From NCBI GenBank assembly GCA_965112735.1, contig OZ218952.1, positions 4,402,001 through 4,466,000 on the forward strand: 64,000 nucleotides of DNA, in the 5' to 3' direction. The position numbers were made by a program, and so were the translations under genes. Under the pieces are notes generated by a model. That model worked only from the letters and a program-made list of their open reading frames with translations. It was not told the origin of the DNA and ran no database searches. This DNA comes from Phaeosaccion multiseriatum (lineage: Eukaryota > Protista > Ochrophyta, other classes). Below are positions 4,866 to 63,089 of this stretch, piece after piece; the stretch's first letter is position 1, and each line of letters begins with the position of its first letter.

Positions 4866-5639
4866 CCTCTCTCTCTCTCTCTCTCCCTCTCTCCCTCTCT
4901 CTCTCTCTCTCTCTCCCCCTCTCCCTCTCTCTCTCTCCGTTTGTACATACAGAGCCTCCTGTGACGTAAGATAGGAGCTCTCAAGGCTTTCCCTCACCTG
5001 CATCCCCCCGGGGTACGCCTTCAGGGCCTGCATGGCTGCCTCGTCACAGCCCTTCCCCAGCATGATGATGTGCCCTCCCGGTAGGGTGTCTTGCTGGTAC
5101 GAGGACGCAAAGTCAGCGCTGCCTTTGCTGGTCTCAAAGTTTGTCTCAAGCTCTGCCGTGGTTTCGCCTGACGCCGCCGTGTGTTGATAAAGGCATCGTG
5201 TGAAGTTGTTTTAGAGGAAGTCAGGAGAGGAAAGAGGAGGAAGGGCGGGTAAGACAGGGAGGGGCAGTGAGCATTCCCTCGCGCTTTGCAGTGAGGTAAA
5301 ATCTTGTGTGTTGAAGGCAATGAGTTCTTTTGCTAAATCCTCTCCTCCCCCTCTACAGAACCGTGGTTCTCCTCCCTGGCTGGAGTTGTAGCAGCACCTA
5401 TCAGTGCCAAAGGAACGGTAGGAGGTCCACCTGGCTCACCATCCTACCACAGGATTCAAGTAACGATGCCATACATGGTCCTTCCAGCACAACAAACAGA
5501 GGGAGAGGCTTGCTGTCCTCGTCACGGTGCACTGACCTGATGCGGAAAGTGTGGAACCTACGATTTGCTTCACTTTCCCCTCATGCAGGTCGATGCAAGG
5601 CCGGAAGCGCATAGCCCTTCGTCTTTGTGGCTCTTCCAT
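3130..5639 (-). CDS. HIS6: ProFAR isomerase (eukaryotic HIS6/HISN3 type), 5 exons
   Basis: Exons 5639-5537, 5167-4998, 4641-4506, 4142-3988 and 3549-3130 splice in phase. Motifs [86 protein letters not shown]. Confidence 0.95.
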
Positions 5640-5752
5640 ATTGTCCCTCGTAAATCATCATCATCCCCCCCCACCCCCCCCGCAGCCCGAAGTACCAACT
5701 GCTGAGTTTTTTTCCCCCCTCAATTCAGATACCCTAATGAGGGCGATCTGCA

Positions 5753-7644
5753 ATGCTGATGATGCGAGTGATGTCTTTGAGGAGGGTGGTCAGGACCTGC
5801 ATTGGCAGGAGGGCAAGACCGTTAGGAAGCACCTCTGCGCAACGTAGGGCAGAGACTGCGCTTTCCCTTCCACAATGCCCACAATGGTCCTGCTACTCGA
5901 ATGGGGGACGGCGGGGGGGTGACAAGGCGAGGCAGAAGCAGCTCATGAGGGAGATCCAAGCTCTGGGTGCAAGCAAGGACTGGAAGAGGGTCGCGCCTAC
6001 TCTGGAACGCGCATGGCGAGTGGGTCTGCAACCCAATCGGTACTGTCTCAATGCTGCCATATCCGCGATTGGGAAGTGCGGGCGGTGGAAGGGCGCTTTG
6101 AAACTTCTGGAAGAGATGAAGAAGGAAGGCCTTGAGCCGACTGTGGTCAGCTATAACTCAGTCATTACCGCTTGTGCCAACGGCAAGAACCACGTGGAGG
6201 CCTTGCGGCAAGAACCACGTGGAGGCCAGATGTTATCAGCTTCAATACCGCTATTACTGCGTGTGCCAACGACAACAACGAAGTTGAGGCCCTGAAGCTC
6301 TTCAATGAGATGAGGGCGGTAGGAATCGCTCCTAACGAGAGGACCTACAGCACTATCATCACGGCGTGTAGCAGAGCTGGCGAAAGTACACAGGCCCTGA
6401 AGCTATTCAAGGAGATGAAGGCGGTAGGACTCAGGCCAACTGTGATCAGCTATAATGCAGCCATCACTGCATGTGGGAACGGAAGCAACCACGTGGAGGC
6501 CCTGAAGCTCCACAGTGAGATGAAGGAGGTAGGAATCAAGCCGGATGTGGTCAGCTACAGTGCAGCCATTACTGCATGCGGCAACGACAACAACCACGTG
6601 GAGGCCCTGAGGCTATTCAACGAGATGAAGGGGATAGGACTCAGGCCAAATGTGATCAGCTTCAATGCAGCCATCACTGCATGTGGGAACGGCAACAACC
6701 ACGTGGAGGCCCTGAGGCTATTCAACGAGATGAAGGCGGTAGGACTCAAGCCAACTGTGATCAGCTATAGTGCAGCCATTACTGCGTGTGGCAACGGCAA
6801 CAACCACGTGGAGGCCCTGAACCTTTTCAAAGAGATGAAGGCGGTAGGACTCACGCCTGATGTGATCAGCTATAGTGCAGCCATTACTGCGTGTGGGAAC
6901 GGCAACAACCACGTGGAGGCCCTGAACCTTTTCAAAGAGATGAAGGCGGTAGGACTCACGCCTGATGTGATCAGCTACAGCACAGCCATCACTGCGTGTG
7001 GCAACGGCACCAATCACGTCGAGGCTCTTAGTCTTTTCAAAGAGATGAAGGCGGTAGGACTCACGCCTGATGTGTTCAGCTACAGCACAGCCATCACTGC
7101 GTGTGGCAACGGCAGTAACCACGTGGAGGCCCTGAAGCTTTTCAAGGAGATGAAGGCGGTAGGACTCAAGCCTAATGTGATCAGCTACAGCGCAGCCATC
7201 ACTGCGTGTGGCAACGGCAACAACCACGTGGAGGCCCTGAAGCTCTTCAAAGAGATGAAGGCGGTAGGACTCAAGCCAAATGTGTTCAGCTACAGGGTTA
7301 CCGTTGACGCTCTGCAGGAGGGTGGCGACGAGGAGGCTGCTGACGAGGTGTACTCAGAGGCCGTGTCGCAAGGGGTTTTCACACACTGGCTGGAGCCTGG
7401 GAGGATGGACTTGCACGACTTCACCCGGGGAATGAGCAAGGCAGCGCTTCGTCACGTGCTCTCAGTGGAGAAGGTGGAGGGTGAGATCAAAGTCATCACA
7501 GGCCGGGGCCGAGGCAGCGAGGATGGCGTCAGCGTTCTCAAGCCCGCGGTGCTGGCCTATTTGCAAGAGAGGCAGGGCGTCGAAGTATGGGAACATGAGC
7601 GCAACCCGGGGATGGTGGTGATGCGGGTCGGTGGAGGGAATTAG
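5753..7644 (+). pseudogene. Intronless P-class PPR protein with C-terminal SMR domain, probably mitochondrion-targeted; frameshift at about 6203-6227 (pseudogene or assembly error)
   Basis: ORF 5753-6295 has an Arg-rich presequence-like N-terminus and the first PPRs. ORF 6172-7644 has ten full 35-aa repeats (VISYSAAITACGNGNNHVEALKLFKEMKAVGLKPN type), one degenerate repeat and an SMR domain (MDLHDF...VITGRGRGS...LKPAV...NPG). The two frames join at a 22-bp duplication. Confidence 0.9.
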
Positions 7645-7819
7645 ACACAGCCGGGTTGTGTTTGGCCTCCCATCCTGTCGCTGTGGCTGCTGGGGATGGT
7701 CTTGTTCTGTCTGTCTGTCTGTGCATTTCCTGGCAGTAGCTCCTTTTCCCTCGGGAGGAATCATGGCTGGCCAGGCCACCCTTTCGGGCCCGCTTCTGGA
7801 CTAGGGACGGATATCATAT

Positions 7820-28081: not shown

Positions 28082-31000
28082 GTACATACACATACACAAA
28101 AAGCTCTTACCTTAAAAAGTTGGGCCGTCTCCTTCCCCGCCGTGATAAAGTCGCTCCCATAAATCGCCACAAAGCAGAGGGCATAGCGCGTGGCAATCTC
28201 CAGCAGCCGCTCCAGCACACCCACCAGACACTCGACTATGGCCAAGGCCAGCGCTCCCATCCTCCTTCTCCTGCGCTTGGCCTGGTTCACCAACACGCGT
28301 AGCACCCGTACGACAGACGTGAGGAGGGCGGCGAGGCACACGGAGCCCAGAGAGGTGGTGCATGCCCGACGGAGAGACCCTGTGACGGGGGAGGAGTCTG
28401 CATACGTGACGAACCACCTGAGAGGGTTGGTGATACAGGGAGGGAGGGAGGGAGGGAGGGAGGGAGAGGGAGAGACAAAGACACACATATACACGCACGC
28501 GCACACGCACACGCACACAGAAGGAGATAATGGCGGATAGAGAGGGAGAGGCCAAGACTTGGGTGAGCAAGGAATGAATGGGGTTTGACTTGGGTAAGCA
28601 AGGAGAGGGGAAAAGGACGAATGGGGTTTGACTTGGGTGAGCAAGGAGAGGGAAAGGACGAATGGGGTTTGACTTGGGTAAGCAAGGAGAGGGAAAGGAC
28701 GAATGGGGTTTGACTTGGGTGAGCAAGGAGAGGGAAAGGACGAATGGGGTTTGACTTGGGTAAGCAAGGAGAGGGAAAGGACGAATGGGGTTTGACTTGG
28801 GTGAGCAAGGAGAGGGGAAAAGGACGAATGGGGTTTGACTTGGGTAAGCAAGGAGAGGGAAAGGACGAATGGGGTTTGACTTGGGTGAGCAAGGAGAGGG
28901 GAAAAGGACGAATGGGGTTTGACTTGGGTAAGCAAGGAGAGGGAAAGGACGAATGGGGTTTGAGGGGAAAGGAGGGTGGCGCATGCACGCAGGCACGCAC
29001 GGAGGCACGCGCGAATACACACGCTCGGGCATGGACAGTTCCTTGCTTCCTCTTGCTTGCTTACCAACTGGCGACGGCTCCGGAGGTGGTGCAATGGACG
29101 AGGTTTGATACGACATTGCAGCCCCAGTAGAGGCTTGTGTGTGTGCGCGTGTATGTGCGTGTGCGTGTGTGTGATGGGAGTGAAGAGTGAAGAGGGGGGT
29201 GAAAAGGTGAGAAGAATGTGGAGGGGAAATCAATTTATGAAAGCGTAAGGGTATGGGATAGGAAGGAAGGAAGGAAGGAAGAAAGGAAAGGAGGGGAAGA
29301 GGCGAAAAGAAAGGGGTGTCAGGAGCGTCAGCGGGCGGGCGTGTACAGCCGCAAGCAATATCCACCACTCATCCATACATCCATCCATCCATCCATCCAT
29401 CCACACATCCATATATCCATCCATCCATCCATCCATCAATCCATCCATCCATCCATCCATCCATCCATCCATCCATTCATCCATCATTCTATCTATGCCT
29501 GTCGAAACTGAAAAGACCCACAGGAAGAACATTAGTAACCTTACGTACCTGACGAGTAGTGCGGTGTAGAGCCACCCGCTGACGGAGTAAGAGGTGCAGG
29601 CGCCGTCCTCGATGACGATGGACCCATCGCACTCGCAGCGGGAGCACACGCCGCTGTAGTCGCACCAGGCCCCAAAGCTCAAATTGGGACCCTGGGATGG
29701 CAGTGGATGGAGGAGGGAGGAGGACGAGGCGTAGACAAGAGGAGGAGGAGGAGGAGGAGGAGAAGGAGGAGGAGGAGGAGGAGGAGTAGGAGTAGGAGGA
29801 GGAGCAGGAGTAGGAAAAGGACAAGAAGGGGGGAGCGGGGTGAGTGGCGAAGAGTCTGTGGGTGACCTTTCCGAGCATCCCTTCCTCCCTTCCCCCCTTC
29901 CTCCTTCCATTCTATCCCTCGTACCTGAGTCTCGTAAGTGGTGCAGGAGCTTGCGTCATAACTCGTCCCTCCTGTGCCCTTGACAGTGTCCTTGCCCAAG
30001 GTGGTTGCTGATCCAATGACGGCCATGCTCCACACCAGACACCACGCGATTTGCACCATCATCAGCAGGGCGGCACTACACATTGTCCCGGGCATATCGC
30101 CCACAGCCATGCAAGCCACCTGTGGTGGGGTAGGCGGTACGAGGGGGGGGGGCGGAGGTGGGGATGGGAGGGAGGAGGTGGGGAGATGGGGAGGTGGGGG
30201 GGGATGAGAAGGGGCCAACGTGCCTGCTTTGAGCGGGACACACTCCGTTCAACTCTGTTTAGAGAGGGGGCAAAATCCCAGCAGAAAGGACGCACAAAAA
30301 AAGACAAGCGGCTCGACAAGGAGGGGGGGACAGCTCGGCTCCTCTTTCAGTCTCCTCTCTCTCTCTTTGACCGGTCCATCATAATGTTCATGAACCGATG
30401 GAAACTACCTTACCTTCAAATTCTTTCCAGCAAACTCTATTCGGTTCCGCACTACGCAATAGTAAACGTATCCGAGAAGCGCGCCAACCAAGGCGAGGAC
30501 TCCGGCCACAATGGAACCCGAAATAAGGAAGGGCAGGCTCAGCAGCGCCAGGCCGGCCACGGAGCTCAAGAGCATCACTCTGAGGAGGAGGAGAGGAGGA
30601 GGAGGAGGAGGAGGAGGAGGAGGAGGAGAGGAGGAGGAGGAGGAGGAGGAGGAGGAGGAGGAGGAGGAAGAGGGGAGGAGGAGGAGCAGGGGAGGAGGAG
30701 GAGCAGGGGAGGAGGAGGAGGAGGAGGAGGAGGAGGAGGAGGAGGAGGAGGAGGAGGAGGAGGAGGAGGAGGAGGAGGAGGAGGAGGGGGAGGGGGAGGA
30801 GGTGGAGGGGGAGAAGAGGAGGAGAAGGGGAGGAGCAAATAGGGGTTTGGGAGCGTGAGAACGAGAGAGACCTACGGGTGGGGTGGGGCACGGCAATCAA
30901 AGCGGCTGGACTGAGGAGACAGAGCTGTGGACAGAGCAAGGCAAAACACCCTCCCACCTTATAAGCTCCTCCCCGAAATGCATGAGCACTTTGACCCAAG

Positions 31001-41073: not shown

Positions 41074-43606
41074 TCAGGCACCTTCACCTTCACCTTTAGG
41101 GCTGCGCGGCTTGCTCTCCTCTGTCCTTATCCGCCCCTTGGGGCTGTATTGGTGGATGGCCTGCTTCCTCGACTCGCAGAACTCTCTCTCCTTGTCCAAA
41201 ACCCACCTCCGTTCGGGCGGGGGCAAAAGGTCCGCCATCTTCTCGACGAGGGTCTCTCGCCGCACAGGCTTGGTTGCAAAGTCGTTCCCGCCCGCCTCCC
41301 TACACTCCCAGACGGCCTCCGTCGAGCAATCCGCAGTGAGGAAGATGATAGGCGTGTCTTTACAAGGGCCGTCACCAGCTCTCAGCTCTCGAGCGGCGTC
41401 GATGCCGTCCATCACCGGCATGACCTTGTCCAGCAGGATCATAGAGAAGTGCTGCTGGCCACACGAATCCACCGCTTGAAGGCCGGTATCCGCACACTCC
41501 ACGGGCAGACCCAGCGAGCCCAGCAGCTTGCTCAGCACCATTCGATTGACCCTGTTATCGTCCACCACTAGCACGCTGGGAGGACGAGGGGCTTCCCCAC
41601 AGATGCTCCCTGCGATCAGTCTGTCGGCAGAGACTTCGTCCTCGCGGGGAATCGTGATCGCTCCCGACTCGTCGCCCATGTCCTCGCTGCTGTTCGCGTT
41701 TGGAGCCTCGCCTTCCACTCGTATACCGTCTCTCGTGTGCACTCGCCGATAGGCCACTGTATCTTCCTCTTTGTCGCGTTGCTGGTCTTTCCCTGACACT
41801 GCTTCCACGCTATTGCTGGCTCCGAGCCCGGGCCAGGCGGATACTGGCGTGCGAAGCTTGCCTTCCACGTTGAAGGTGCAGCGAAACTCCGACCCCTTGC
41901 CCAACACCGACGAGCAGGTCACGTCTCCCCCCATGGCCCGAGCAAGGGCGTCGGAGATGGCCAGCCCCAGGCCAGTGCCCTGTATGTTGGGAGTTGCGCT
42001 GCTGTCGTGCACCTGGACAAAGGGTTTGAACAGGCGCTCCACCGCGTCGGGTGCCATCCCGATGCCCGTGTCGCATACAGTGAGGAGAATCATCACTTCC
42101 TCCTCTGACTCGCCGCTCGTCTGTGTGGCGTCCAGAAAAAGATCGATGGAGCCGTGCCTTGTGAACTTCATTGCGTTGCTGATGAAGTTGTTGAACAGCT
42201 GTCGAATCCGCACGTCGTCGCCAACCACCCTACCCCGTGGAACACTGCTCCCGATGGTGAGGCTCATGCTGGAGAGCGACGAGGTGCCCGTCGTATGGAG
42301 GATGGTCCACGCGCTCTCCACCATCTCCACCGCGAGCGCATCGAGGCGGAACGTCCTCTTCGCTATCTCAATCTTGCCCGCCTCGATCTTGCTCATGTCG
42401 AGAATGTTGTTCACCAAGCTGAGCAAGGTGGATGAGCAAGAGTGTATCACGTTGACGTAGGGCAGCACCGAGGCGGGAAGATCGACGCTTTCAAGCAGTT
42501 GGGCCATTCCCACGATACCATTCATGGGCGTGCGAATCTCGTGCGTAATGGAGCGGAGGAAGCGCGACTTGGCCGAAGAAGCCTCTCTTGCGATCGCTGC
42601 TTCTTCCTTCCTTTGGGCCTGGAGCAAGAAATTGCGACGTTCCCACAAGCAGAGTAGCGTAAGTAGCGCACACCCCCCCGCCATTACACCGTAGTACTCC
42701 CACGGAAGGCCTCGCTTCACGAGGCGATGCGGGGTAGTGGCCGTTTCCACATAAAAGGACATTTCGGAGTCGGGACGCGGCCGTCTCGAACTCAGAGCGA
42801 GCTGCCGCAGGCACTCGGCTCGTGTAGACAATACCCTTTCCTTCCGACGTGCCCGGGGTGGTCAAGTCAGAGTATTGGCCCAATGTAAGGTTGCCGCCAC
42901 CACCCCACGTCTGCAGGGCCAAGCGGATGATTTCGCTCTCGCTGTCTGAAGACGTGAGTCGGTTGAAGACTGTGGTCTGAAGGAAGGCAACGTCGGCTCT
43001 GTAGGCGGTCATCTCCTCTCTCTCCAGAGATTTGGCATACTCCATCGCAACAAAGTGGGTAGCTACGAGCCCCACACACAGCAGCAAGAAAATACGGAGG
43101 CGTCTCAATGCCCTCTCGGACTGGCCCTTCTTCCCATTCTTGTTGTTGCTGCCCTCTCCTCCGTCTCCTTTTACATCCACACTTTGCCATTGGGCGACTT
43201 TTTTAACCTCACCAGGCGCGTCAGTAGGTGCTCTTCGGGCTCCTCTTTCATCGTCACCCCCCCCCAGCTCGTAGTTCTTCTTGCTGGGGTAAGAGGGATA
43301 CAACAGGTGACCTCGTTGTTTCTCTCTTTCCTCCTCCTCGACTCTACTACCCTTCCTCTCTGCTTTCGCTGACATCGACAGCGGTGGCATCCTCTGCGGT
43401 GAACAATCCCTAGGACCTCCATCGCGTGAACCATCATGAGTGGGGCGCCGAGCCGCCGGTTGAAATCCAGGAGCTTCTCCGGCTGGTGCTGTCGCAGCTG
43501 CCTCTGGTGATGCCTCCTTCCCTTCACAGCCAATGCTTCTGTCATGGAGGGGCAGCACTGCTCTATCGCTAGTACTGCGGGTCGGTAACCTCCAAAACGA
43601 CCTCAT
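41074..43606 (-). pseudogene. Intronless hybrid sensor histidine kinase (TM, partial CHASE, TM, HisKA, HATPase, REC), frameshift near 42760-42780
   Basis: H-box ITHEIRTPMNGI, N-box RQLFNNFISNAMKFT, G1 DTGIGM, F LFKPFVQ, G2 GTGLGLAIS; receiver VLVVDDN, ILLDKVMPVMDG, FLTAD, ATKP. The upstream frame supplies a TM helix and a CHASE-like start (GIVYTSRVPAAARSEFE). The kinase-receiver ORF 42831-41074 is itself intact. Confidence 0.85.
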
Positions 43607-56700: not shown

Positions 56701-59700
56701 ACTCACAAATGGCAATGTCAAAGGCAATGGGAAGGGCCATGGCAAGCAGCTGAAACAGCAGCAGCAACAGCAGCAGTTGGTGATACAGCGGCAGGGGGAG
56801 GCGCCGCGGTGGATTGGGAGGATCCCGCTCGATTCTTCCCTCGATATTGTTGTCTGTCACAGAGCGGTGGAGCAACTGATACAGCACCACTCACAGCTGT
56901 CACAGCAGTCGCAGCAGTCACACCACTCACAGCAGTCACAGCAGTCGCAGCAGTCGCAGCAGTCGCAGCATCAGGGTGGTTGCTCACAGCAGCAGTCTTC
57001 CCGTCAGGCACTCAAGGTAAGAGAGGAAAGGGGGAGGTGGTGTCAGGACGCAAGGGGGAGGGAGGGAGGGATGGCAGTGGATGGGTAGGCTCCCGGAAGG
57101 CTGACGTGTGCCAATGCGCGTGTGGGCGCGTGTCTTTAACACGTCCTATCATAAGCCTGCTGCCATCTTGCTCGTGTATTTGTTCCCCACCCCATCCTGC
57201 CTGGTTCGCCACTCAACATGCGCAACCAACCAAACAACCCTTATTTATGCGTCATCCCAATCTTCCATCTTGCCCCTCGCCCTTTCCGCGCCTCTTCTCT
57301 TCTCAAAGCTCCTTCTTTGGACAGAGAACAGCAGCAGCGGCAGGAACAGCAGTATCAGTCATACGGGCAGTAGGGCAGTCACGGATGGCTTTGGTGGTGT
57401 CAGCACTCCCAAAGACGTGGAGGTGTGGCTCGGCGGCATATGCGTGTGGTCCGGTGTTCTCCCCAGAGTATGTGAGGCCTTCCCAATACATATACGTCTC
57501 CACCCCCCACCTCAAACAGAGGTACAAGACAAGCCGCATGAGGAGGAGGAGGAGGAGGAGGAGGAGGAGGAGGAGGAGCCAGCCGTCTTCAAACCTCCAT
57601 ATGCCTCCCCTGCCTCTGGCTTGCAAGTGAGAAACTCCTCCTCCCGAGGAAAGGCGGAGGCTTCTGCTTGTTGTGCTTCCTCTTTGACAAGACTCGCGCT
57701 GTCGGGGAGAGGAGGAGGAGGAGGTGGAGAAGGACTTGCAGTGGTGCCAACGCCCCCTTCGTCGGACCGCAGCAGTGGCAGCAGCACGCACAGCAGCAGC
57801 AGCAGCAGTCATATGGGCCGTCGTAGGACAAGGGCCGCTCTTGAGGGCAGGCGGCGGAGCGTCGACGGCTCAGGTGGTAGTGCATCGATGGCAGCAGACG
57901 CGAATGACAGCAGCAGTGGAACAGTCCCAAGTTGGCTAAGCGAGTCGCAGCATCAGCGGCAGTTGGTGATACAGCAACAACAGTCGAAGAACACACAAGC
58001 CGGCGATGACAGTGCTCCAGACCGTCGCAGGGGAAGTAACGCGGTTCGGCGAAGAAGGAGCGGCAGCACCACCACCACCACCACTGTTACCACTGCCACC
58101 GCCCCTCTCGAGCAGGACCAGGAGGAGGAGGAGGAGGAGGAGGAGGAGGAGGAGGAGGAGGAGGAGGAGGAGGGGAAGGAGGAGGAGGAGGAGGAGGAGG
58201 AGGAGGAGGAGGAGGCGAATGGTGCGGTGAGGGTAATGATGCCTTTGGGTCTAGGCAGGACTGGAGTAGAGACGAAGGATGAAGGACGGCAGGGAGGAGG
58301 AGCAGGGGGAAAGGGAAGAGAGCGGAGGGGAGGAAGGAGAAGAGGATGCGGTGTGGATGGGCCAGCAGGGGGGGGAGAAGGAGGAGGAGGAGGAGGAGGA
58401 GGAACAGTGCGGCCTTCGCCCTATCGTCGGAGATCGCTGGCTGCTGCTGCTACACCTGTATCACTTACTGCCGATGTACCACCAGCTGCTGCCGCATCAC
58501 GAACTACTGCTGTATCGCCACCTGCTGCTTCTTCACCCGCGGAACAAGAAACTTCTTCACCCGCGGAACAAGAAGCCCGTCCTTCTCCTGCCACCCACCC
58601 CTCCAACAGCAGCAACAGCAGCAGTCGTATGGGCAGCAGCGGTAGCGGTGGTGACCATCGCAGGGGGGTCACCACCGACTCGGCAAGGGGAAGGGGGGAG
58701 AGCTGCGTCCACACCGGGGGCGGGCAGGAGGAGGAGGAGGAGGAGGACGAGTCGCGGGGATGGAGTCCGAGCTTGGCGACGACGAAGAACAACGAGTTCG
58801 ACGACGCGCTCACCCCCCTGGAGAGGAGTGTGAGTGTGAGTGTCCGGAGGAAAGGCGTAGGCAGCAACACTACTACGGCTCCTCCTCCTACTACCACCAC
58901 TTGTACTCGCAACCTCGAGTCGTCGGAGTGGGACGTTTCGTTCAGTAGGAGTAGCCGGAAGGAGGAGCGAAAGGAGCAGGATGCTTCGCTCCTCGACTCT
59001 TGGGATTCCCTGGAGCGCTTCTCCCGAACCAGCCGGAGTCGCTTGGGCCGAGCAGCGGCAGCCTTCTTGTCGTCGACACCAAAGGGCTGCTCAACCCCAA
59101 CACGGGCAACAGTTGGTCATACAGGAGCAAGGATTTCTGCAGGAGCAACAAACGTAGCAGTTGGTGGTTCAGCAAAGGGGAGGAAAGGCCCATCAGAGGG
59201 TCATAATGGAGCGGCAGCAGCGGCAGCACCAGCAGTTGGGACGGGGGTGGGTGCAGCTGTATCACCAACTGCTATGGTGGGGCGGGAGGACAGGGTGCAG
59301 CAAGTGAACAAGGCCATGGAACAAGTGGCCAATGTGCGCCGCCAACTAGGCGCGTTGGCAGGCTCCAAGCAGAGGGGGAACTTGCAGAAGCAGCAGCAGC
59401 AGCAGCAGGAGTTGGTGATACACGGTCAGGGTCAGGGACAGAGTGAGAGCAAAGAGAAACAGGCTCGAGAGGTGCGAGGAGAAGAGGACGCGGAGCAGGA
59501 GGAGGGGGGGGGGAGGGAGGAGGAGGAGGAGGAGGAGGAGGAGGAGGAGCAGCAGAGGGAGGGGGAAGAAGAGGACGTCCTTGGTGAGCTCGAGGGGCTC
59601 GAGGAGGGTGTTGACGAGGACTCTCTCCTCATGTTGGACTCCCTCGAACCGTCCATCTCTCCCGTGCGTATGTCCCCAATCTACGCGGCCGCTGGGGTGA

Positions 59701-62700
59701 TGGGGGCGGTGGGAGGAGGAGGAGGAGGAGGAGCAGGAGGAGGTGGAGGAGCAGGAGGAGGAGGAGGAGGAGGAGCAGGAGGAGGTGGAGGAGGTGGAGG
59801 GTTTGGGGTGGGTTTGACTGGGTTTGATTCAGCGGAGGAGCAGAGAGCGGCTGGAATAGTAGGCGGAGGAGGAGGCGCTTACTTCGAATGCCCCGAGCTA
59901 CCATCGGGGCGGGTGCTGACCCTAACCATACTCTCCACTTGGGGAGATCCTCACTACGTTGGCCTTTCTGGCCTTGAGCTGTTCGACAGCGGAGGGCAAC
60001 TCATCACCTTACGAGATGCCAAGAGACAGGTCAAGGCAGAGCCCTCCACCACCACCACCACAGCTGCAGCCGTATCACCAACTGCTGCATCTGATCCTCG
60101 TACGGTGGACCGTCTCTTTGATGGGACTGTGTATACATGTGATGACATGCACGTTTGGCTCGCGGCGTGGGATGGGCGGGTCGGGGATGAGTGCCGAAGG
60201 AAAGGCGGTGGTGGAGGAGGTGGAGGCGGCGGTGGTGGTGGTGGTGGTGGAGGAGCAGGAGCAGGAGCAGGAGCGGGAGGAGGAGGAGGAGGAGGAGGAG
60301 GAGGGAATGACGGCGTGGTGACGGTGACGGTAACCTTGGATGCACCCACCACACTCGGCCTGATGCGCTTTTGGAACTACAACACATCACGAACGCACTC
60401 TTGCAGGGGTGTACGGTGGATAAGAGTGTGCTTTGATGAACAACTCATCTTTGATGGGGAAATACGCAAGGCGCCCGGAGGCCTTGAGCTAGGGCCCGAA
60501 CGGTGCAGCGAAGTGGTGCTCTTTAGCCTCGACGAGGGCTTGGTGGAGGCGCTGAGAAGGCATGACGAAGCGGAGACCCATGGGTTGTTAGGGGAGGGGG
60601 GGGGAGAGGAGGAGGGGGAGAGGAAAGGGAAGGGGGAGGGGGAGGGAAGGGATCGTCCTCGCACGAGCAGCGCCAAGGAATCACAGACAAAGGCAGGGGC
60701 AGCAGCTTTGAGGTCCTTAGCAGGGCAGCAGCAGCAACAGTTGGTGATACAGCAGCAGCTGTTGAGAGGTGGATGTGGCAAAGCAGCGACGACGAAGAAA
60801 AGTGGTGAAGCAGCACATGGCGACGACGATATGCACGAGGACGGTGAGGAGGGTATGGATGAGGTGGATGCTTTGCTGGCGAGCATGGGACCGCTCTCAG
60901 ATGAAGACAACGACCATGGCAAAGTTGGTGATACAGCAGCAGCGGCAGCAGCAGTTGGTGATACAGCAACTGATCGTATGGACGACGACGAGAAAGACGA
61001 AGACGCCCCTGCCTTGTCCTGTAAGAGAGGGGCAGCAGTTGGTGGTCCAGGAGAAGTTGGTGATACAGCAGCAGTTGGTGATACAGCCACAGCAGCCGAG
61101 GAGGAGGAGCTTGCCCTCCTGCCCCTTGCGCGTCGCATCACCCTGACCATTCTTAGCACGTGGGGCTGTTGTTCCTACGTAGGACTCACAGGGGTGCAGG
61201 TGCTCACAGGGGCGCAGCGCTCGCCAACCCTCGATGAACTGTCGGAGCGGTTTTCGCCAAATGTTAATCTGTCGGCGGGTCTGTCACGGTCAGGGTCAGG
61301 GTCAGAGTCAGGGTCAGGGTCAGGGTCAGAGTCAGGGTCAGGGTCAGGGGCAGGGTCAGGGTCAGGGTCAGGGTCAGGGTCAGGGGCAGGGGCAGGGGCA
61401 GGGTGGATACGAAAGGGGAGCGTCTCTGGCGCTGTCTCATGGGCAGCGGCGCCCTACAGAGATCTTGCGGATGCGGGCTTCGAAGGAGATCCTCGCTTGT
61501 TGGACAACCTCGGGGATGGAGTCAATGTAACCACGGATGGTCGACACATGTGGCTCGCACCTTTGCTCGACATCGGAGGGACAGGAGGAGGAGGAGGAGG
61601 AGGAGAGGGAGGAGGAGGAGGAGGAGGAGGTTTGGGGGGAGGGGTAGGCAATGGGAACAAGAGACACCCTCCGACCATCACGATCGATTTGGGTTCGCCC
61701 AAGCGCATCGCCGGACTTGTGGTTTGGAACTACAACAAAAGCGAGGAGGACTGCATACGGGGGGCCAAGCAGGTTCTGGTGTCTCTGGACGATGGGGAGG
61801 AGGGAGGAGGAGGAGGAGGAGGAGGAGGAGGAGGAGGTACTGTGCAGAGCTTTGTACTGCGCAAGGGGCTCGGGCACTGCCGAATGGGGGACTTCTCACA
61901 AGTGCTGCTGTTGGACGGCAAGGCACGAAGGAGAAGGAGAGAGAGGCAGATGCGGGGGGGGGGGGGGGAAGAAGGGCGACAGGCAACTCAGCAGAAGGGA
62001 AGCAAACAGCAGCAGCAGCAGCAGCAGCAGTTGGTGGTACAGCACCAGCGTCAGGCTTCTGTGACCACGACGTATGTATCACCACCTCTGCGGCAGGACT
62101 TTGAAACGCTGCTCCGCCCCTCGGGCCTCATGTTGCAGTTGGTGATCCACTCAACATGGGGCGACGCCTACTATGTGGGCCTGGACGGCTTGCAATTCTT
62201 CGACGGAGCGGGCGAGGAGATCAGAGTCAAGGCAACCCAGGTGAGGGCCGTGCCAGACAGCCTTGGAGCCATTGGACAGGAGGACGACTGTCGTGTGCCG
62301 GGCAACCTTGTCAATGGAGTGCATGGAGAGGAGCGAGTCGCCACCGCCGCCGCCGCCGCCGCCGCTGCTGCTACTACCGTACCACCAACTGCTGTACCAC
62401 CAACTGCAAAGGGCAGTAGAGTGTGGGGGCCACAGAAGCAGCAGCGGAGGAGCGCGCAGCACGCGTGGCTCGCCCCCCTGGCGTGCTCTCTCGGTCACGA
62501 CAGCACTTGCACTCGTATTGGTGCTGGTCCTGACACTCGGGGGGAGAATATGGTGTATGTGCTGTTCGACGCCCCTGTGACCCTCTCCATGTTGCGGCTG
62601 TGGAACTACAGCAAGACGCCCCAGAGGGGTGTGAAGGACTTTTCGCTCCTCCTGGATGGGGCCCTCCTCTTCTCGGGCAGCCTGGCGATGGCCGGCAATG

Positions 62701-63089
62701 GCGTCGCCACCACCACCTCCTCCTCCAGCACCATCTTCAATGACAGCCACAGCAGCAGGGGCAGGGGCGGGGGCCTCGCGAGAGACCACCATCCAGGGAA
62801 AGGAGCGTTGGCGACGACGGCGGATGACGAACTTCCCCAGGAGGGTCGTGAGGGGCAGCCTATCCTCTTCTCCAACGACCCGGGTCTGGTGCAGAGGGAG
62901 CGGCACAATGTACTGTACTGTGGAAGGGCCACACAAGACGTACTGTGCATTGACGAGCGACAGGTCAAGGAGCGTTCTAGGGCCATGTATGACACCGTGG
63001 CCATGCCCTTTGCCCAGGGGAGTAGGGTGGACTTGAGCAAGAGACCTTCCACGTCAGCCGTCGGAGGAGGAGGGGGACGAGCAGCATGA
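53748..63089 (+). CDS. KATNIP: Katanin-interacting protein (KIAA0556/KATNIP, DUF4457 repeats), 3 exons, heavily expanded by low-complexity inserts
   Basis: Exons 53748-53862, 54159-57016 and 57309-63089. N-terminal YLHLLQQRNRLKK...ERGF..FSGAN; three clear repeats of STWG..YVGL.G...D.R...L.DG...HxWLAP...WNY.K...RG. Confidence 0.9.

Follow-up and report, generated by a model that had tools for sequence, protein, structure and literature searches.

The question raised by this locus is whether a gene made of tandem pentatricopeptide (PPR) repeats and a C-terminal SMR domain, located at positions 5753–7644 of a 64,000-nt stretch of DNA (the window), encodes a rapidly re-programmed RNA endonuclease, as a preliminary description had proposed. 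The gene was compared to database proteins, solved structures, and contigs from four public sequencing runs (X1, X2, X4, and X5), which comprise two samples from two studies, one of which may be the source of the window. Publications are cited by PMC number.

Architecture of the PPR-SMR gene

The gene at 5753–7644 combines ten 105-nt P-class PPR repeats with an SMR domain and lacks introns, and it belongs to the PPR-SMR class by every feature testable here, except for the broken open reading frame (ORF) of the window copy. All of its parts lie on the forward strand. The start codon and an Arg-rich N-terminus (5753–5854) are followed by the divergent first PPR repeat (repeat A, 6038–6142; code N/T), recognized by Pfam PPR in the N-terminal ORF and by translation, and by the broken repeat B (6143–6231). 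The array of ten 35-residue P-type repeats (6232–7281), a terminal degenerate PPR-like helical hairpin (7282–7386; helices 36–48 and 52–64 of the model), and the SMR domain (7387–7644; stop codon at 7642–7644) complete the gene. Repeats 1–10 and the SMR domain share one frame, and an intact version of the gene would comprise ~635 residues. One contig of run X5 aligns starting exactly at 5753. The first 34 residues include nine R/K and one D/E, and a hydrophobic signal-peptide core was sought in the N-terminus and is absent (maximum 9-residue Kyte–Doolittle mean 1.57). Judged by this composition, the N-terminus fits a mitochondrial presequence, and we infer mitochondrial targeting.

The ten full repeats were recovered by TRF (6225–7295, period 105, 10.2 copies, score 1243), by Pfam PPR (ten stretches, E 1e-66), and by direct reading, in agreement with the preliminary description. 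The same applies to the single-base difference between the twin repeats 6 (6757–6861) and 7 (6862–6966), and to all twelve residue pairs at the code positions 5 and 35, i.e., NT and ND in repeats A and B, and NN, ST, ND, SN, NT, SD, SD, SD, SN, and SN in repeats 1–10. The reading of the second pair (ND) spans the break, because repeat B is rearranged and the ORF is split. The repeats had also been called nearly identical in DNA for the most part, which did not hold: only one of the 45 repeat pairs differs at ≤5 bases and five differ at ≤10 bases, with a median difference of 16 of 105. Mean DNA identity between repeats is 81.5%, and 87.3% for repeats 3–10. With a median inter-repeat amino-acid identity of 0.77, their likeness still appears unusual, as values of ≥0.6 were reached by 8 of 99 database matches. 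The best sequence matches among solved structures were the designer PPRs 5orq and 5i9d (scores summed over repeats). Positions 9–12 of the repeat read TACG, a motif similar to that of the SACEK PPR class of heterokonts, haptophytes, cryptophytes, and dinoflagellates (PMC12787238).

The C-terminal SMR domain, which had been assigned from the letters, was verified by a Pfam Smr match (E 1.6e-4; 22.2 bits, under the cut-off of 25.7) and by the fold of an AlphaFold2 model of the C-terminal 155 residues (pLDDT 94.6). The SMR model was similar to the Smr domains of MutS2 (2zqe; Z 10.9, rmsd 1.7, 73 aligned) and human N4BP2 (3fau; Z 8.4, rmsd 1.7, 63 aligned), and the model matched the PPR-SMR protein pTAC2/PAP2 (8r5o_G; Z 10.9, rmsd 3.9, 153 aligned). 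The motifs MDLH (7405–7416), TGRG (7498–7509), and NPG (7603–7611) are conserved; at D, H, TGRG, and NPG, the window gene has the residues that prevail among 63 homologues, nine of which share M at the first position of the xDxH motif. The LDxH and TGxG motifs that define SMR subfamily 2 (PMC3858433) are present as MDLH and TGRG. SOT1 cuts RNA by means of its PPR and SMR parts and requires TGxG (PMC6662315), and Cue2 requires D, H, and R of the SMR motifs (PMC6598757). As both nuclease motifs are kept, the domain is predicted to cut RNA. Alternatively, the protein might bind organellar RNA sequence-specifically and mainly stabilize it or aid its translation or processing, the SMR domain being an accessory and not a cutter. 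SOT1 is the sole plant PPR-SMR with demonstrated cleavage in the account of PMC6662315, where its PPR part alone partly rescues and several plant PPR-SMRs act without demonstrated cleavage, and the Pfam Smr score lies under the curated cut-off. We nevertheless regard such binding without cutting as improbable, given that none of D, H, TGRG, and NPG has been lost and each agrees with the residue most often seen in the homologues, and that the family variants listed (40 of 197) leave the SMR motifs untouched.

As context, the first exon of a neighbouring gene lies at 5537–5612 on the reverse strand, with a GT donor at 5536; from its N-terminal motif, we take this gene to be HIS6-like. Its ATG and that of the PPR-SMR gene are arranged head to head, 140 nt apart, and the two genes may share a promoter in 5612–5753. 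The PPR-SMR gene had been described as intronless among intron-rich neighbours. Its ORF indeed lacks an intron and the head-to-head neighbour has its donor, but other genes of the window are long ORFs as well. One of them (41077–42861, reverse strand) encodes a hybrid histidine kinase with HisKA, HATPase_c, and receiver domains. Another, an open frame of 1994 codons (57105–63086, forward strand), contains DUF4457 (KATNIP/KIAA0556, a ciliary protein) and is ~30% identical to animal homologues, which we read as suggesting a flagellated lineage poorly covered by databases. A non-coding-looking tandem array with periods of 41, 84, and 125 nt and 94–98% identity is located at 28576–28963. An X5 contig of 1226 nt matches the HIS6-like first exon exactly (5536–5646) and leaves the window at the predicted intron donor, for which reason run X5, guessed to be DNA, may hold spliced RNA. 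A second version of this exon (positions 5600 and 5607) was seen in all four runs and represents a paralogue or an allele.

Related copies and the broken repeat

A search of the 64-kb window for a second PPR-SMR copy found none. The sequencing runs, in turn, contained hundreds of related contigs, and the gene is not single-copy, a point on which the proposal of a diversifying family depended. Contigs matching a 2.5-kb stretch at ≥88% numbered 1316 in X1, 1310 in X4, 470 in X2, and 266 in X5. The flanks and parts of the array were matched exactly at one depth level (~100–125 in X1), with exact contigs of single-copy depth at 5374–5670, 6454–6578, and 7620–7772 in X1, and at 5300–5806, 6453–6600, and 7620–7773 in X2. 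The summed depth of related copies was 66–117x that of the single-copy flanks, which is a rough guide only. At single sites of the non-repeated C-terminal part, 15–28 variant contigs in X1 summed to 82–117x single-copy depth, and X2 reached 22–96x; at position 7354, four X2 contigs averaged 16.6x. Summed depth was just 11–17x in the N-terminal 5′ part, which indicates that the presequence is shared at 88% by a smaller number of copies. Since overlapping contigs inflate depth sums and depth does not equal copy number, we read the window gene as likely one of dozens of related copies, and at least of more than ten.

Some contigs link repeats in orders unlike that of the window; in one X1 contig, repeat A is joined to a repeat-2-type unit (6140 to 6337, the letters between being not known). 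Among the joints listed with known inserted letters, 12 of 12 keep the 105-nt register (four from one contig; 21 further entries stand outside these 12). In-register joints are expected from any intact paralogue, because alignment puts each part against the repeat it matches best, and they neither date nor count recombination events. At the uniquely placed repeat A, position 35 is T in the window copy and S or N in other copies, amounting to three code states at one homologous repeat. A diverged paralogue contig (depth 117.3 in X1) contains two tandem repeat-2-type units with the non-canonical residues K35 and C5, as judged by eye. Five of eight SMR-domain variants among those listed (40 of 197) are synonymous, which we count as pointing to purifying selection on the family.

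A multi-copy intronless gene whose relatives depart from the window sequence near the start and stop codons might also be a selfish or mobilized nuclease gene, spread by retroposition or a mobile element, with an SMR domain acting on DNA. Isolated SMR domains nick DNA, whereas full-length SOT1 does not, as described in PMC6662315. The N-terminus, moreover, is presequence-like, and neither a target-site duplication nor a terminal inverted repeat or poly(A) was found beyond chance, the longest flank match of 7 nt equalling that of shuffles. We consider such an origin extremely improbable.

The window copy itself is split into two ORFs (5753–6295 and 6157–7644) because of a net loss of 16 nt in repeat B, which measures 89 nt instead of 105 nt and carries a 22-nt duplication (6181–6202 = 6206–6227) and a frameshift. 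As assembled, this copy is unable to make the full protein. Introns restoring the frame were rejected: none of 12 GT–AG candidates has both a consensus donor and a pyrimidine tract, and most cut into repeat 1. Contigs over 6225–6239 continue upstream with an intact repeat end (two of two in X2 and one of one in X5), and one X2 contig matches 6225–6313 exactly at ~3x single-copy depth. The intact repeat ends imply that near-identical intact copies exist. No contig crosses 6208–6224 among those listed for X2 and X5; contigs drop rare variants, and this hole proves nothing. Repeat B is either a recent casualty of family turnover or a local assembly error. Its two junction overlaps, read from the sequence, span 4–5 nt, and template switching therefore fits better than a k-mer mis-join.

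The error might extend further: assembly may have stitched parts of several paralogues together into the array, the twin repeats 6 and 7 and the frameshift among them, in which case the order and codes of the array would belong to no real gene. The contigs over 6225–6239 in X2 and X5 lack the window's junction, and short-read assemblies misbuild arrays of high internal conservation (PMC11761791). However, the exact contigs of single-copy depth cover the flanks and part of the array in X1 and X2, and the junction overlaps are too short for a k-mer mis-join. A chimera, in addition, requires the family to exist and leaves the main claim unaffected. We hold a chimeric array to be decidedly improbable.

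Repeat evolution and variability of the code residues

Synonymous divergence between repeats is 0.26–0.32 (pS), and the repeats therefore share recent ancestry. In a four-gamete test, 20 of 36 informative site pairs failed (14 of 18 far and 6 of 18 near pairs); such failures, being more frequent when sites are far apart, are a sign of conversion or unequal crossover. By these measures, the repeats appear young and mosaic. Motif duplication, deletion, and recombination can be recognized in the twin repeats 6 and 7, the four-gamete failures, and the in-register joints.

The preliminary description had suggested a per-position analysis of selection, with the caveat that positions 15, 22, 25, and 33 also vary. 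The scaffold showed pN/pS values of 0.30–0.44, and residues 5 and 35 together showed 0.82–0.91. The code residues are thus freer than the scaffold, i.e., ~3x more variable, but not above neutral. The caveat was well founded, as positions 22, 25, 33, and 15 are as variable as 5 and 35. Within the gene, the pair of positions 5 and 35 ranks 58 of 595 or 31 of 595 in variability, and position 5 ranks only ninth. As pN/pS at the code is not above neutral and the other four positions are equally variable, this gene alone does not demonstrate selection on the code. The code switches in the array are all one-base changes (N/S, N/D, and N/T). Across repeats 3–10, positions 13 and 16 retain Asn from identical codons, while positions 5 and 35 toggle.

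A survey of other arrays covered 233 proteins from two similarity searches, of which 124 have ≥4 tandem repeats and 8 are homogenized (median identity ≥0.6). Together with the window gene, these 8 form a set of nine homogenized arrays, found by similarity to the window query. In this set, position 35 is the most variable of the 35 positions and position 5 comes next, with P from 5e-5 to 2.2e-3 across null models and subsets (window gene included or excluded, one array per lineage for five lineages, and last repeat dropped). In the 116 divergent arrays, they rank 9 and 20. Code residues thus resist homogenization across the nine arrays, a pattern to be expected both under diversifying selection and where a needed code is preserved.

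Homogenized PPR-SMR arrays are not confined to this genome. In one search set, homogenized arrays carry an SMR domain more often (5/16 vs. 3/83, P 0.0025), but not over all sets together (5/41 vs. 3/83, P 0.11); the sets are biased by the query. None of 25 PPR-SMR proteins picked via the SMR domain had a homogenized array. The proteins P0054, P0039, P0029, P0084, and P0008 are eukaryote-like PPR-SMRs whose SACEK-type repeats are homogenized and switch code residues in the same way (N/S and N/D/T). P0055, a hypothetical protein of 516 residues labelled Salmonella enterica (in a cluster of 6 from several isolates), combines seven homogenized PPR repeats, in which the 5/35 codes switch, with an SMR-like tail. 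A bacterial PPR-SMR had been noted previously only in Legionella longbeachae, according to PMC3858433, which also lists PPR-SMRs in heterokonts. For the SMR region of the window gene, the best database relatives share 38–45% identity, none with E below 1e-16, and the best named database match was to Chrysoparadoxa australica (36%). Relatives with DNA context were not found in viral or metagenome contigs, longer SMR relatives were not found by word search (a weak test), and the protein collections searched contain no close relative of the window PPR-SMR, from plants or otherwise.

On these data, one may ask whether the family expanded neutrally or under relaxed constraint, i.e., whether a young PPR-SMR gene was amplified by duplication and slippage, with a code that toggles without selection for targets. 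The pN/pS values at positions 5 and 35 do not exceed 1 and other positions vary equally, every code switch is a one-base change, the window copy is broken, and the paralogous contig read by eye has non-canonical codes. Against this, the scaffold and the SMR domain are under purifying selection, the Asn codons at positions 13 and 16 are unchanged where the code toggles, and the code positions top the variability ranking over the nine arrays. We therefore judge neutral expansion to be unlikely, albeit with some weight.

Relation to known systems and proposed function

Known PPR-SMRs (SOT1/PPR53, GUN1, pTAC2, SVR7/ATP4, and those of heterokonts and dinoflagellates) share with the window gene a P-class tract and a C-terminal SMR domain with xDxH and TGxG. 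Arabidopsis has eight PPR-SMRs with orthologues across angiosperms (PMC6662315, PMC3858433), and dinoflagellates have one to five (PMC12787238, table 4). In contrast to these one to eight per genome, the family described here likely comprises dozens, its repeats are homogenized, and its SMR domain has no close database relative. In the mainly open-access literature searched (titles and starts of abstracts), no report of an expanded or homogenized PPR-SMR family was found.

The family resembles the restorer-of-fertility-like (RFL) genes of plants, which are intronless and rich in paralogues, duplicate and delete motifs by unequal crossover, and vary at positions 5 and 35; the purine codes SD and SN also occur in rice RFL proteins (PMC5075784). 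Many close intraspecific paralogues are found here as well, roughly, from contig depth and number. RFL proteins, however, have no nuclease domain as described in PMC5075784, and clustering and positive selection have been shown for RFL, in another lineage. Having an SMR domain and no close plant relative, the window gene falls outside the RFL clade proper, which is angiosperm and without a C-terminal domain. The Chlamydomonas NCL proteins likewise form a lineage-specific family of paralogues that bind RNA through helical repeats and end in a putative endonuclease, and a single substitution can direct them to a new transcript (PMC8635915). They are chloroplast-targeted and consist of OPR repeats and a RAP domain, whereas the window gene has PPR and SMR instead, and the two are not homologous. 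The designer PPRs cPPR and dPPR share the fixed scaffold with switching code residues but are artificial; the window gene is a natural counterpart fused to a nuclease domain. TAL effectors combine concerted repeats with few hypervariable specificity sites. Concerted repeat evolution with few hypervariable specificity sites is also described for the fungal NLRs het-d and het-e (PMC11761791). NLRs and TAL effectors differ from the window gene in that they bind protein or DNA, their repeats are more alike, and diversifying selection has been shown. The family is like RFL, NCL, and fungal NLRs in its evolution and a member of none.

For the proposal of a rapidly re-programmed RNA endonuclease, this yields a divided outcome. 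The intact nuclease motifs, the multi-copy state, reshuffled in-register neighbours, young mosaic repeats, and a code resisting homogenization speak for it. On the other side, the repeats are less alike than first thought, the copy is broken, pN/pS at the code does not demonstrate diversifying selection in this gene, and such arrays are not unique. The best reading is an RFL/NCL-like family specific to this lineage, whose proteins would target organellar RNA, carry a putative nuclease of their own, and diversify through duplication and conversion of repeats.

Starting from the observed architecture, motifs, mosaicism, and multiplicity, we infer the location, cleavage, target, and selective driver as follows. 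Intact family members would be imported into mitochondria, as predicted from the presequence, residues 5 and 35 of each repeat would mediate binding of ~12 RNA bases, and the SMR domain would cut the bound RNA nearby. Slippage, unequal crossover, and gene conversion would homogenize the scaffold, while selection would keep the code residues different. By duplication, conversion, and one-base switches, copies would drift to new targets in a birth-and-death family like the plant RFL and Chlamydomonas NCL genes, and broken copies would be shed in family turnover. We regard this course as rather probable. The most likely job of the family would be surveillance or processing of fast-changing organellar transcripts.

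With the PPR code table, and repeat B assumed to be N/D, the predicted target of the window array is Y U Y A U A Y G G G A A. Two ribosomal RNAs were rejected as targets: E. coli 16S rRNA at 339 matches at 10 of 12 bases, a score also reached by 512 of 2000 shuffled repeat orders, and 23S rRNA matches at 9 of 12, as do 1987 of 2000 shuffled orders. Because shuffled orders match equally, these rRNA matches are due to chance.

Beyond this, it is conceivable, if only tentatively so, that the family constitutes a natural library of programmable endoribonucleases under code selection and serving genetic conflict, a design that would have originated several times over, in other protists and in bacteria. 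The conflict partners we propose for this case are selfish mitochondrial transcripts and organellar parasites or endosymbionts.

PPR-SMRs have been described as few and conserved, with SOT1 as the only proven nuclease, and dozens of close paralogues would depart from that description. If the reading is true, the family, whose members would differ chiefly in the order and code of their repeats, would allow the PPR code to be studied in a natural setting outside plants and RNA cutting by the SMR domains of PPR proteins to be tested directly, and engineered RNA cutters could be built on its ready consensus-like scaffold. Alongside RFL, NCL, and fungal NLRs, it would be a further example of adaptive recognition by repeats, in this instance with a built-in effector, and would point to conflict in the organism.
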